Assembly (NCBI GenBank): GCA_964635125.1
Contig: CAZWMQ010000001.1
Span: forward strand, 84,386 to 148,385
DNA length: 64,000 bases
Reading direction: 5' to 3'
Origin: an uncultured Candidatus Saccharibacteria bacterium
GTDB taxonomy: Bacteria > Patescibacteriota > Minisyncoccia > Phycocordibacterales > UBA5272
Position numbers and translations under genes: made by a program. Shown here in pieces: positions 9,951-16,541 of the stretch. The notes below the pieces were generated by a model. The model saw only the letters and a program-made list of their open reading frames with translations. It made no database searches and was not told where the DNA came from. The number at the start of each line of letters is the position of its first letter. Position 1 is the first letter of the stretch.

Positions 9951-10472
9951 ATGTTTATTTCCCCAATAGAAATTATTCAAAATTTAGATTTAAAAGAGGG
10001 AATGAAAGTTGCCGATTGTGGAAGTGGGACTGGAGCTTATGTTTTTCCTATCTCTGGAATTGTTGGAGCAGGCGGAAAAGTTTATGCGATTGATAAGGAT
10101 ATTAATATTTTAGATAAGATAAATCGTGAAGCCGAAAAGGGTAAGATTGAAAATATAGATACTATCTTAGGAAATTTAGAAGAAAAGATACCAATTCCAG
10201 AAGAAGAATGTGATTTTATAATTTTATCTAATGTTCTCTCAGAAGTACATAATCTTGAAAGAGTAATTTTAGAAATTAAAAGAATTTTAAAAGATAATGG
10301 ACAAGTTTTAATTATCGACTGGAAAAATAATAATCTAGGTTTAAATATTAAAAGAAGAGGTTTGATTGAGGAGGAGAAATTAGTAGCAATTTTAGCCAAT
10401 AATAATTTAGAAATCAAAAAACATATTCCAGCTGGTGATTATCACTATGCTTTTTTAGTAGAAAAGTTTTAA
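9951..10472 (+). CDS. Class I SAM-dependent methyltransferase
   Basis: 173 aa; motif I VADCGSGTG, post-I acidic residue AIDKD. Confidence 0.6.
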   Translation: MFISPIEIIQNLDLKEGMKVADCGSGTGAYVFPISGIVGAGGKVYAIDKDINILDKINREAEKGKIENIDTILGNLEEKIPIPEEECDFIILSNVLSEVHNLERVILEIKRILKDNGQVLIIDWKNNNLGLNIKRRGLIEEEKLVAILANNNLEIKKHIPAGDYHYAFLVEKF

Positions 10473-10509: not shown

Positions 10510-11868
10510 ATGAATTTTTCTAGATTTTTAAATTTTAAAGGAATTATAATTGGAGTGGCTTTATTTTCAGTGATTATCGCAGTTCTAGGATTTTCTGGGA
10601 AGATTCCAATTTTTAATTCGACGGCTAAACAGAAATTAACTGGGACTTTACAAGTCTGAGGGACAATTCCTCAGGAAGCTATGAATGGTTTTGTTGATAA
10701 TTTTGATAAGACTGCCAAGACCTATAATATGGTTTATACCGAAGTCAAAGAAAAAGATATTAATCAGAAATTAATTTTAGCCTTAGCTGATGGATATGCT
10801 CCGGATCTATTAATTACACCGTCGGAAGTGGTCTTTGCTAATCAGAATAGATTATTACCAATTTCTAAGACTACTATAACTGAGACTGATTTTCGAAATT
10901 TATTTATCGATGGAGCTTCAATTTTGATTGATAGTAGTGGGTATTTAGGCTTACCATTATCTATAGATCCTCTAGTTCTTTATTATAATCGAGATATTTT
11001 ATCAAGTAATGGTTTTTCAGATCCTCCATTATACTGAGGTGATCTTTATAATTATGATACAAAAATTACCAAAAAAGATGATAGCGGTAATATAACGATG
11101 TCAACAATTGCTTTTGGAACTTATAATAATATTCCTAATATTACAGATACTATTATTGCTATGATTATGCAACAAGGTCAAACTCCAATTGATAGAAATT
11201 TTGTGAAAGATTCAGTCGGTAATTATTCAGTAGGTTATCAAGTTAATTTTAATACCGCAGTTAAGGAAGGTAATATTTCTCCATTAAATTCGGCTTTAGC
11301 TTTTACAAAAGATTTCTCGGACTCTTTAAAACCAGTCTATAATTGGGATATTACCAAAAGAAATGCTTTATCAGAATTTATTTCTGGAAATTTAGCTTTT
11401 TATGTTGGTTTTGCTTCGGAGGCTAATTATATTAAAAGCGCTAATCAAAAATTATATTTTGACTATACAACGATTCCGCAAATAGATGGTAATAATTTAA
11501 AGACTACTTATGGTAATCTTTATACTATTTCTATGTTGAAGACAAGCCCTAATCAAAATCTAGCTTATCAAGTAATGGTGGCTTTAGCTACGGGAGAATT
11601 TAGTCAATATTTAGTACCTTTAACCGGAGGAGTTTCAGCTTTAAAGGTTAATATTACTCAAGGTATACAAAGTGGAGATCATACCGCTTCTGTTTTTGGG
11701 TCTTCTGCTTTGATTGCTAAGACATTTTACGATTTACATAGAGATAATTTAGAGAGTTTAATGGCCAGAGCTATTAATCAGATTTATAGTGGGGAGAAGA
11801 GTACAGTTGAAGCAGCCAATGATTTAACAGATCAATTACAAACAGTTTACAATAATATTAATCAATAA
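10510..11868 (+). CDS. Membrane-anchored extracellular solute-binding-protein-like (SBP family 1-like) protein; 2 UGA-Trp codons merge ORFs 10681.. and 11098..
   Basis: Same reading frame across both TGAs; N-terminal TM; sugar-type SBP-like sequence features. Confidence 0.45.
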
Positions 11869-11871
11869 AAT

Positions 11872-12783
11872 ATGAAAATTAATTTTAATAAATTTACCAA
11901 GCTAAAGAAAATAAGTTCAACTTTTATTTTAATTTTAATTTTTGTAAGTTTTATTTATAATTTGAATATAGGGAAAGTCTATGCAGTTAATCAAGAAAAG
12001 TTAGACCAGTCTTTTCAAAGTATTAATAGTTTAAGCGATAGTCGGACTGGACTTTTAACTTGTGATCCTAATGCCGCTCAAGATAGTTCAAGTTCTTGTA
12101 CTCCTAAATCAGCAATTTTACTAGGAGTTAAATTAGCTCAAGTTTTAATTTATATAATTATCATAGCTTTAATTCTGTTTCTAATAATTGGAGGTATTGG
12201 TTATGTTTACAACGGTAAGAATCCTGGCTATTTAAATAAATGGAAAAAACATATTAAAAACGCTGTCTATGCTTTATTAATTATTGTTTTTGGTATGGTT
12301 TTAGTTTTTGGATTATTAAGTGCTTTTAGATTTAAGTCGGATGTTTTAAATTTTATTAAAAATTTATTCGCTAATTTAAATTTTCAGATTATTCAGCATA
12401 GTTATGCCCAATCTTTATCATCTTTAGCCGAGAAGAGTACGAACGGAGAATATACTAATTTTTTCCCGGGACAGACTATTACTAGTATAATTTTAACTTC
12501 TATTAAATTTTTTATAAACTATATTGCCGCCCCAGCTTTAATTTTTGCAACGATTTGGTCTGGAGTCAGATTTGTTGCTGCTCAAGGTAACACCGATAAA
12601 TTAGTCAAAGCTAAGAAATTTGCTTTTAGAGTGGTAATTGGAATAATTGTAGCCGCGGCAGCTTATTCCGCATCTTCAATTTTTCTAAATACCATAAACG
12701 GAGTAGCTAAAGAATCTAGTTCGGTTAAGATAATAAATAAAAGCATTGGAAATTTAAATATAAACAACTTTAGATTCTTCTAA
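11872..12783 (+). CDS. Pilin-like membrane protein (signal peptide, Cys-containing region, two TM helices)
   Basis: 303 aa; architecture resembles the VirB2/TrbC-like small proteins downstream. Confidence 0.35.
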   Translation: MKINFNKFTKLKKISSTFILILIFVSFIYNLNIGKVYAVNQEKLDQSFQSINSLSDSRTGLLTCDPNAAQDSSSSCTPKSAILLGVKLAQVLIYIIIIALILFLIIGGIGYVYNGKNPGYLNKWKKHIKNAVYALLIIVFGMVLVFGLLSAFRFKSDVLNFIKNLFANLNFQIIQHSYAQSLSSLAEKSTNGEYTNFFPGQTITSIILTSIKFFINYIAAPALIFATIWSGVRFVAAQGNTDKLVKAKKFAFRVVIGIIVAAAAYSASSIFLNTINGVAKESSSVKIINKSIGNLNINNFRFF

Positions 12784-12832
12784 TAATCTTAAAATTAGAT
12801 ATTTTTCTTATGTTATAATTTTAGATAAAGAT

Positions 12833-13591
12833 ATGTCAAATTATAATAAATTTTTTCAAAAGTCAATTAAGTTTATTTTTGTATTTTTTTCAATTTATAT
12901 TTCTAATGTAATAATTTCTAAAGCTCAAGCTACTTTACCAGATTTTCAGGATATTGGAGGGTTGATTAAAAATTTTAATAGCAATATCTTACAGAATTTA
13001 GTCATATTATTGAGTGGAGTGGCAGTGGTTCTATTTTTATATGGATTAGTTAGATTTATTTTTCATCGTTCACAGGGAGGGGAATCTAGTAAATTAAAAG
13101 ATGATAAGAAGAATATGTTATGAGGTTTAGGAGCATTGTTTGTTTTAGTTACTTTATGGGGAATAATTGCTTTGGCTCAAGATATTTTAGGGGTAGATAA
13201 GAATAATAATATTCATATTCCAAAGATATGTGTTAGTGATAACTGTGATACGGTCTCATCTAATCCTGGTGGTGGCGGAGTGGTTAGCTCCATAGCTACT
13301 TGTCCAACTGGAACTATTGTAGCAACAGACGGATCTTGTCTTCCAAAAGTCCCAAGAGATACAAGTTGTGCGGACGGTTATATTAGAGACAGCAATACTA
13401 ATGAATGTGTAAAAGATACGAATTCTCCCGATACCCCCGATACTTCCAATATTAACAGTAAGAAATCTCCGGGAGCGATATGTACAGTTTTATCTGGCGG
13501 GAATAGTAATACTGAGTGTACAGAAGGATATTACTGTAAAAGTTCCACCCAGGTCACGGGTTCAATTGGTAAATGCACCAAACTCCCTTAA
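12833..13591 (+). CDS. VirB2/TrbC-like two-TM pilin-like protein with Cys-rich C-terminal domain (ORFs 12833 and 13136 joined via UGA-Trp)
   Basis: Signal peptide, TM1, short loop, TM2 (LFVLVTLWGIIALAQDILGV), then Cys-rich tail; same frame across TGA at 13121-13123. Confidence 0.45.
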
Positions 13592-13608
13592 TTTAATATT
13601 AAATATTT

Positions 13609-14523
13609 ATGAAAATAAAATTATTAAAATCTTTAAATGTTTTTAAAATATCATTTTTACTTTTTATCTTAAGTCTTTGTTTAAAGATAGGGAGAGCTTT
13701 AGCTCAAGATAATGCCGCTCAATCTACAAATAATTTTAAAGAAACTGCTAACAATATAGTTAATAATGTTTTAACTTCTGCTGGGACTTTATTGATGACG
13801 GCAGCTTTTATTTTATTTTTTTATGGAGTTGTAATGTTTATATATGGTAGAGTAACTAATAAAGGAGATTTAAAAGAATTAGAAAAAGGAAAGCAGTTCA
13901 TGTTATGGGGATTAATTGCTTTATTTGTCATGGTCTCAGCTTGAGGGATAATTAAGCTTGCCCAAGACATCTTTGATATTAAAGGGAATAATATCACTAT
14001 TCAACCAGTACAGTTTGCTCCGCTGGCATCGACCCCAAAACCTCCTGGTGGAGGGGATACTGACAGCATTGTACCTTTACAAGGGCTTGGAGGGTCTTGT
14101 AATACTAATTCAGAATGTCAAAATGGATTACAATGTAGCAATAAAACTTGTGTAAAAAAGTCTGTAAATAATCCTTTACAGAGCGGATCAGATGGTGTAA
14201 TACGAGAAAATCCATTTGCTAATACTGATATTTTTCCATTAATAAAGCCAGGATATAATAATGAAATCTTTTTAGCAAAATTAGTTACTGGTTTAAAAAA
14301 TAAAAAATGTACTCAAGCAACTTACAATAATGAAGTATATATTTTAAACAGTTCCTTTGGTTCTGTTTACGAAGGAGCAGATTTAGAATTTGTTAAACTT
14401 TTTCAAAAAGTAAATGGATTAAGTGCAGATGGGATAGTGGGTAAAGACACTTGGGAGGCTTTATCTGTAACAACAGGAATGAAGACAACTTTTACTGGAA
14501 TTATAGTTAAAGATTGTAAATAG
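13609..14523 (+). CDS. VirB2/TrbC-like two-TM pilin-like protein fused to a C-terminal peptidoglycan-binding (PG_binding_1-like) domain
   Basis: TM2 LIALFVMVSA-W-GIIKLAQDIF spans a UGA; Cys-rich linker; C-terminal GLSADGIVGKDTWEAL motif. Confidence 0.45.
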
Positions 14524-14585
14524 AGCTTATTTCTAAAGGGTTATTTAGGAGAATAACCTTAAATTCAACGAATTAATGCATAAAC

Positions 14586-14614
14586 TTGACATTTATTTTA
14601 CTTTAGTGTATATT
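14586..14614 (+). promoter_or_regulatory. Sigma70-like promoter (TTGACA, 17 bp spacer, TATATT) upstream of the gene at 14695
   Basis: Exact -35 consensus and a near-consensus -10 at optimal spacing. Confidence 0.45.
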
Positions 14615-14694
14615 ATTAGCAGTACTACTGTTCTTTGTATTGAGGTGAATACCTAGTCATAGAGCAGATTTTTTTAATATATTAAAAATTTTTT

Positions 14695-15009
14695 ATGGCT
14701 GAAGAAAAAAAGAAAAAAAGCTCCGGAGCCATTTGGTGGCTCGTTGGAGCAATATTTTTAGGTCCAATGGCTATTAATTTAGCTATGGATGGACTAAATA
14801 ACATAGTCCACACCCTTTCATCCGGAATGGCTTCTTCAAGCCAGGGGATGAAAGAGCTATTAAAAAGCATTATTAGGTTCTTCCTAATGTTGTTTTTGAT
14901 AGCCGGAGTGCTTAAGATTTTCATTTCAGGAATGAAGGAGATGTTTAAGAAAAAAACTTCTCCTTGAAAGATATTCACAAGCCGTCAATTTTGACCGCTT
15001 ATATCTTAA
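14695..15009 (+). CDS. Small two-TM pilin-like membrane protein (104 aa with two UGA-Trp codons)
   Basis: AIWWLVGAIFLGPMAINLAM and IIRFFLMLFLIAGVLKIFI hydrophobic helices; extends 14 aa past the track ORF under table 4. Confidence 0.35.
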
Positions 15010-15210
15010 ATCTATCGTTATGTTGTAATTTTGCGACACTGACGATATCGATTTTCGATATAAGATGTGTCTGAAATGACGGCTTTTTATTTTGAATATT
15101 TTTTATTTCATATTGAATTTTTAAGTTTTTACTCTTGACTTTTTATTAGATAACTAGTAGATTATAAATAGTTAATAATTTTTAATCTTTAATTTTTAAA
15201 AATTTTTGAG

Positions 15211-15399
15211 ATGGGAAAATTAATAATGTTTTGTCTTTTATTAATCGCTTCTTTTAATTCCAGCCATCTTTCTCCCAAAGCTAATAATTTGATAGGAGTA
15301 TTATGGATATTTTTAATTGGTTGGGTCTTATTTATACATAAAGACCCTCCAGTAAAGAAAAAGAAGCGAAGAATCTATTTTGAAGATGACGAAGATTAG
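15211..15399 (+). CDS. Small hypothetical membrane protein
   Basis: 62 aa, two hydrophobic segments. Confidence 0.25.
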   Translation: MGKLIMFCLLLIASFNSSHLSPKANNLIGVLWIFLIGWVLFIHKDPPVKKKKRRIYFEDDED

Positions 15400-15633
15400 G
15401 ACTTTTAAATTATTATAAATATTAGTCTTAATCATATTTAAGGCTATAATTTACTTTTAAGTAAGATAAAATTTAGCCTTTTTATTTTTGTGTATTTTTA
15501 TCTATTCCGGCTAATTTTTTGATATTTTAAAGTTGTGAATAATTAATTTGCCTTATTTTTTTAGATGATATAATTAATTTATAGGTTATTTAGTCAGATA
15601 ATCTTTAAATTATTAACTTATATATAAAATTTT

Positions 15634-16200
15634 ATGAATAAAATTACTAGTATTTTAGGAGGGATTGCTTTAGCTTTTGTTTTTTCAATCTCAGTTACTT
15701 CTACTTCTGCTCAGCAGATTTGTGTAAGTGTTGGAGGGCAACCGGGAACAATTCAAGGTGGTATTTGTATACCAACTGGAGGAGGTGGCCAAAATGGCTA
15801 TATAAATTGTCCAAATGGAACTAGAGTCCCACAAGGTTATCCTTGTCCAAACACTAATACTGTTGGAGGACCAGCTTATACTCAAGGCCAATATCAAAAT
15901 CAAAATCATGCCGCAGATTTGTCTTTCTTTGGTAATTTAATTGCTGGAGTAGGTGGAATTGTTAGAATGTTGCCCCCAATATTATTGGGTATTGCAGTAG
16001 TAATATTCTTCTACTTCTTAATTAAATATTTGATTGCGGGGAAAAATGATCCAAAAGATAGAGCAGGAGCTTTAAAGGGATTATTATATTCACTGCTAGC
16101 TATATTTATTATGGTAGCTTTATGGGGAATAATTGCTTTCTTTGGTGATGCCTTAGGCATTAATCCAAATACTCAAGTTAATGCTATAAGATTACCATAG
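15634..16200 (+). CDS. VirB2/TrbC-like two-TM pilin-like protein with Cys/Gly-rich N-terminal extracellular region
   Basis: Signal peptide; TM2 LLAIFIMVALWGIIAFFGDALGI is paralogous to 12833 and 13609. Confidence 0.45.
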   Translation: MNKITSILGGIALAFVFSISVTSTSAQQICVSVGGQPGTIQGGICIPTGGGGQNGYINCPNGTRVPQGYPCPNTNTVGGPAYTQGQYQNQNHAADLSFFGNLIAGVGGIVRMLPPILLGIAVVIFFYFLIKYLIAGKNDPKDRAGALKGLLYSLLAIFIMVALWGIIAFFGDALGINPNTQVNAIRLP

Positions 16201-16292
16201 TAAAGTTTATAAAGATTATCTAACTATAAAAATAAAATCACTTTAAAAGATAAAGTGATTTTATTTTTATCTTATGTTACAATAATATTAAT

Positions 16293-16541
16293 ATGGAAGG
16301 AGTTAATAAGGTAGCTAATTCAGTAATAGATCAATTTATAAATCCCGCAGTTTATTTATTATCAGCCTTTGCTTTCGTGTGGTTTTTATATGGAGTAGCT
16401 TTATTTATTTATCATAAAAAAAATGGGAATACAGAGGGAGTAAGTACGGGGAAAAGACATATGATATGAGGCATGGTTGGATTAATTATAATTTATTCAG
16501 CCTCAGCTATTTATACATTTATTACTGGATTTTTTAATTAA
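16293..16541 (+). CDS. Small two-TM pilin-like protein (82 aa, one UGA-Trp)
   Basis: FAFVWFLYGVALFIY ... HMIWGMVGLIIIY; same family motif as the neighbouring paralogs. Confidence 0.35.

Follow-up and report, generated by a model that had tools for sequence, protein, structure and literature searches.

Arrays of VirB2-like genes have been described in Patescibacteria, where 441 arrays of 2–11 genes were found in 383 assemblies, and pilin genes lay near virB4 in just 1135 of 1948 assemblies (PMC12102498). In Southlakia epibionticum, an array of six pilin genes is essential and has been suggested to act as a pilus or conduit (PMC12857230). No pilus has been observed for any type IV secretion system (T4SS) of Patescibacteria, and the function of these systems has been called completely unknown (PMC11665869). 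Here, we analyzed a 64,000-nt stretch of DNA (the window) from a Paceibacteria-type genome. Our preferred reading is that it carries five VirB2-like (PF18895) pilin paralogues in a vertically inherited array on the chromosome; taken jointly with the mechanism proposed below, we give this reading a slightly better than even chance.

Five genes encoding small two-helix membrane proteins lie in a row in the same orientation (+ strand): A (11872..12783), B (12833..13591), C (13609..14523), E (15634..16200), and F (16293..16541). In a Pfam search against the T4SS_pilin family PF18895 (gathering threshold, 26.6 bits), A (39.1 bits), C (27.3 bits), and F (29.3 bits) scored above the threshold and B (19.4 bits) and E (22.8 bits) under it. 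Leave-one-out profiles linked B and E to the other array members (E-values of 1e-5 to 1e-22), with scores of 73 bits for B and 33 bits for E against the profiles built without them, and a PF18895 match was present in 63 of 65 database relatives. These results upheld the assignment to a T4SS-pilin family expanded in CPR bacteria that had been made in the initial annotation. Because A is a tandem, the five genes encode six PF18895 hairpin domains. The array proteins could be aligned over approximately 85 residues with no large gaps, and the pairwise identity between paralogues was only 10–30%. The second-helix motif thought to be shared by all members was found in B and C (WGII.LAQDI) and in a weaker form in E (WGIIAFFGDAL), but it was absent from A and F.

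Hydropathy analysis gave each array protein two hydrophobic helices separated by a short Lys/Arg-rich loop, and signal-peptide-like N-terminal segments were present in A, B, C, and E but not in F. The earlier description of two closely spaced helices behind a signal peptide or N-terminal region therefore applies to these five genes, with F lacking the signal peptide. Hydropathy and charge distribution predict membrane helical hairpins with both ends outside and the short basic loop inside; a helical hairpin was also predicted by the structure model, and a fold search returned generic helical hairpins only. The small size and two-TM build, together with weak sub-threshold matches of some members to many unrelated TM families, might suit holin-like or bacteriocin-immunity proteins, or small membrane proteins of another unrelated kind. 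Such an explanation is very improbable, since homology to such families was looked for in Pfam and NCBIfam and did not appear; moreover, class II holins do not match the topology (N-out/C-out), the signal peptides, or the extracellular domains of these proteins, and the array lies among housekeeping genes, in neither a phage nor a bacteriocin locus.

B, C, and F are full-length only when UGA is read as Trp (codons 97, 112, and 59, respectively), a reading that was independently confirmed and that holds genome-wide and is not a local oddity. The public gene call for F (P0049) stops at the UGA and yields 58 aa. An in-frame UGA had been placed at, or immediately before, the motif Trp of B, C, and E; this was correct for C, whereas the UGA of B is at the first Trp (MLW*GLG) and E has none. 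The context in F is MIW*GMV. The occurrence of this code in a Paceibacteria-type genome is the more surprising incidental observation.

The five proteins differ in what accompanies the hairpin. Pilin A (303 aa, no UGA), matched by PF18895 in two stretches, consists of a signal peptide and two tandem PF18895 hairpin domains (four TM helices); with the cluster profile, these domains reached 80.5 and 78.2 bits. In an exhaustive search for A, 14 matches reached E ≤ 1e-30, most of them orthologues over the full length, and relatives with several stretches were numerous; proteins with up to eight tandem hairpin stretches exist. Pilin B (252 aa) continues after its signal peptide and hairpin into a Cys-rich C-terminal tail (130 aa, 10 Cys), in place of which its orthologues in four relatives carry two PG_binding_1-like repeats. 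In pilin C (304 aa), the signal peptide and hairpin are followed by a linker, a 4-Cys knottin-like motif, and a Cys-bracketed PG_binding_1 domain (PF01471; 27.8 bits, gathering threshold 23). The AlphaFold2 model of the C tail had a mean pLDDT of 83.6, with pLDDT >90 over approximately 140 residues, and Foldseek matched it to the PG-binding domains of L,D-transpeptidases, SleB, and phiKZ gp144 (prob 0.8–0.95); the Cys motif resembled cystine-knot toxins. The PG_binding_1 domain claimed at 13609 is thus supported by both the HMM and the predicted fold, and marks for PF18895 and PG_binding_1 occurred together in 17 of 57 database relatives. Pilin E (188 aa, no UGA) has a signal peptide and a 75-aa exposed N-terminal part rich in Gly, Cys, Pro, and Gln, followed by the hairpin (AlphaFold2 helices 97–135 and 140–173; pLDDT 76–86). 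The Cys-rich parts noted earlier were confirmed, with 10 Cys in the tail of B, 6 in that of C, and 4 in the N-terminal region of E, the last of which AlphaFold2 modelled at low confidence. Pilin F is a minimal leaderless hairpin of 82 aa and the best-conserved member, with 49–60% identity to its orthologues compared with 25–46% for A–C. Overall, B, C, and E are predicted to show extra-membrane modules (knottin-like Cys motifs and a peptidoglycan-binding domain). The predicted hairpin cores are conserved, and the putative exposed modules (PG_binding_1, knottin-like Cys motifs, and S/T/P-rich tails) vary by species.

Two further small membrane protein genes lie between C and E. Protein D (14695..15009, +; 104 aa with its two UGA codons translated as Trp, or 90 aa if it ends at the first) had been counted as a sixth paralogue, which left five of the six claimed, because D has no Pfam or NCBIfam pilin match and scored only 8–12 bits against the cluster profiles. 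Both of its ends are Lys-rich, and the charge distribution predicts the opposite topology (N-in/C-in). All four relatives have a small TM ORF at the corresponding place, with just 13–24% identity. Protein D2 (15211..15399, +; 62 aa) has a Lys/Arg-rich segment and then an acidic tail; it was rejected as a pilin, with no Pfam or NCBIfam family match and no relation by the cluster profiles, and its position is conserved in relatives. The strong sigma-70-like promoter reported before 14695 is present as a site (TTGACA-17-TATATT, 14586..14614, +; 11/12 matches, the best in the region), but such sites in the region were no more frequent than in shuffled sequence (23 versus 29 ± 4.6).

Other regulatory-looking elements recur in relatives. 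An extended -10-like element, TGTTATAAT (12811..12819, +), lies 13 nt 5′ of the B start, with TGATATAAT at the equivalent place in L001, L002, and L084, and it may act as a promoter. Between E and F, a perfect 20-bp hairpin and the T-rich run after it (16226..16270, +; free energy −18.7 kcal/mol, z −4.4) resemble an intrinsic terminator; a hairpin and T-run occupy the same place in L001, L002, L082, and L084, each with a different stem sequence. A second extended -10-like element, TGTTACAAT (16275..16283, +), lies 9 nt before the F start, with TGATATACT or TGCTATAAT at the equivalent place in relatives, and is a candidate for F's own promoter, which would give a very short leader. Gene E is flanked in 5 of 5 clade genomes by an inverted pair of the 12-mer AGATAATCTTTA, itself contained in a longer (33-nt) imperfect inverted repeat; here, the copies lie 27 nt before the E start (15596..15607, +) and 10 nt past the E stop (16210..16221, −).

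The array is syntenic in four relatives (L001, L002, L082, and L084), with an orthologue for each paralogue. Its genes evolve faster than their neighbours (25–60% identity compared with 76–81% for GlyRS). This divergence, the species-specific exposed modules, and the inverted 12-mer around E could fit paralogues that serve as alternative surface subunits, singly expressed or shuffled, for host matching or defence evasion, an idea offered for Patescibacteria arrays (PMC12102498). We consider this unlikely here. The orthologues are one-to-one and in the same order in five genomes, and the set is therefore stable rather than turning over; the paralogues are so dissimilar in sequence and architecture that they are not interchangeable cassettes; and no recombinase gene lies nearby.

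Upstream of A lie a class I SAM-dependent methyltransferase (9951..10472, +; 173 aa; Methyltransf_31/11/25, 46–62 bits) and a membrane-anchored sugar-type extracellular solute-binding protein (SBP; 10510..11868, +; 452 aa with two UGA read as Trp; SBP_bac_1 53.7 and SBP_bac_8 49.2 bits), the nearest solved structures of which are ABC sugar-binding proteins and GacH (E 1.7e-6). The SBP stop and the A start are 3 nt apart, and in L095 the SBP and first pilin genes overlap. The order methyltransferase-SBP-array was found in 10 of 10 Paceibacteria loci examined: an SBP orthologue (clade HMM, E ≤ 1e-54) was immediately 5′ of the first pilin gene in all 10 distinct loci, a methyltransferase with the same Pfam marks preceded the SBP in 7 of 7 array loci having precomputed Pfam annotation, and an ORF of similar sequence did so in L001 and L002. 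The genes downstream of the array differ among loci, and those upstream of the methyltransferase differ in one locus.

As had been stated for VirB4 and VirD4, the window holds no T4SS machinery gene, and VirB4, VirB6, VirD4, and VirB3 were not recognisable from approximately 6 kb left of the window to approximately 9 kb beyond its right end, although outside the window UGA-split genes in code-11 calls could mask Pfam matches. Literal VirB2/TrbC homology was not borne out. All array proteins were under the TrbC PF04956 threshold of 27.9 bits (F, 20.2; C, 15.2), and a profile-profile comparison with annotated plasmid VirB2/TrbC proteins was collinear over 78 columns but not significant (hhalign probability 1.5%, E 0.033), so homology to canonical TrbC/VirB2 is not demonstrable from these comparisons. 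One array member of a Giovannonibacteria locus matches PF04956 strongly.

In the mechanism that we propose, the hairpins would be pulled out of the membrane and assembled into a short fibre or conduit across the cell wall by a T4SS encoded elsewhere in the genome, a partner that is assumed because none was recognisable around the array. F, which is the most conserved member and has a promoter-like element of its own behind a terminator-like hairpin, would be the bulk subunit. Paralogues with added modules may serve as minor, tip, or anchoring subunits that hold the fibre or conduit on the peptidoglycan of the cell itself or of a host, and the tight linkage to the SBP suggests that the apparatus works in capturing or taking up material from the host and not in conjugation. 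Several points speak against this mechanism: no machinery gene was recognisable around the array, homology to canonical VirB2 is not demonstrable, the fold search gave generic hairpins only, no pilus of a Patescibacteria T4SS has been observed (PMC11665869), and globular tails of 130–180 residues, as on B and C, would be bulky if borne by all subunits of a helical filament of the VirB2 type. These tails, the lack of any recognisable T4SS gene in approximately 80 kb around the array, the linkage of 10 of 10 loci to the methyltransferase and SBP and not to virB4, and the nonsignificant VirB2 relation would agree with T4SS-independent envelope anchors, in which the hairpins only display PG-binding, knottin-like, or S/T/P-rich modules without forming a polymer and, with the SBP, serve membrane-wall tethering or host-surface binding; up to eight tandem stretches fit membrane-embedded repeats as well as filaments. 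We regard this alternative as possible but doubtful, because minimal members (F and the 80–130-aa proteins of L094–L099) display nothing and yet are the most conserved, more than half of Patescibacteria assemblies have the family close to virB4 (PMC12102498), and one array is essential along with T4SS genes (PMC12857230).

Among known systems, TrbC/VirB2 pilins (PF04956; Agrobacterium VirB2, RP4 TrbC) share a signal peptide that ends in A-x-A-Q and is followed by a short amphipathic segment and two hydrophobic helices with a short basic loop, but virB1, virB3, and virB4 do not flank the array as they do in all eight plasmid examples fetched, and several array members bear large additional domains. 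The Mbov_0395-family pilin-like conjugal transfer protein of Mycoplasma ICEs (NF045849), also a small two-TM protein of a low-GC, UGA=Trp monoderm, was the best NCBIfam match for F (30.9 bits, E 1.6e-7) and matched all other members more weakly; all scores were under the 40-bit cutoff, and there is no integrase, relaxase, or VirB4 (no ICE context) here. The T4SSs of Bartonella and Anaplasma likewise have several divergent virB2 genes side by side, for which surface variation or broader host-surface binding has been proposed; however, those genes encode genuine VirB2 homologues and belong to the virB operons of diderm pathogens, whereas here orthology is stable per paralogue across species and the architectures are unlike. 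The closest systems are the Patescibacteria arrays, such as the six-gene array of S. epibionticum ML1 and the 'Sec-secreted array' of Nanosynbacter lyticus TM7x, which share PF18895, tandem divergent paralogues (reported mean identity of 25%) (PMC12102498), and a chromosomal location without a relaxase in a monoderm CPR host. Those arrays are reported to be most abundant in Microgenomatia and Saccharimonadia, and linkage to a methyltransferase and SBP is unmentioned (PMC12102498); the present array, in contrast, is in a Paceibacteria-type genome, is always directly behind these two genes and not adjoining virB4, has three members fused to PG_binding_1 or Cys-knot modules and one tandem double pilin, and is written in the UGA=Trp code. 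Arrays of 2–11 VirB2-like genes are known in Patescibacteria, and this locus therefore belongs to a known kind, with some undescribed features.

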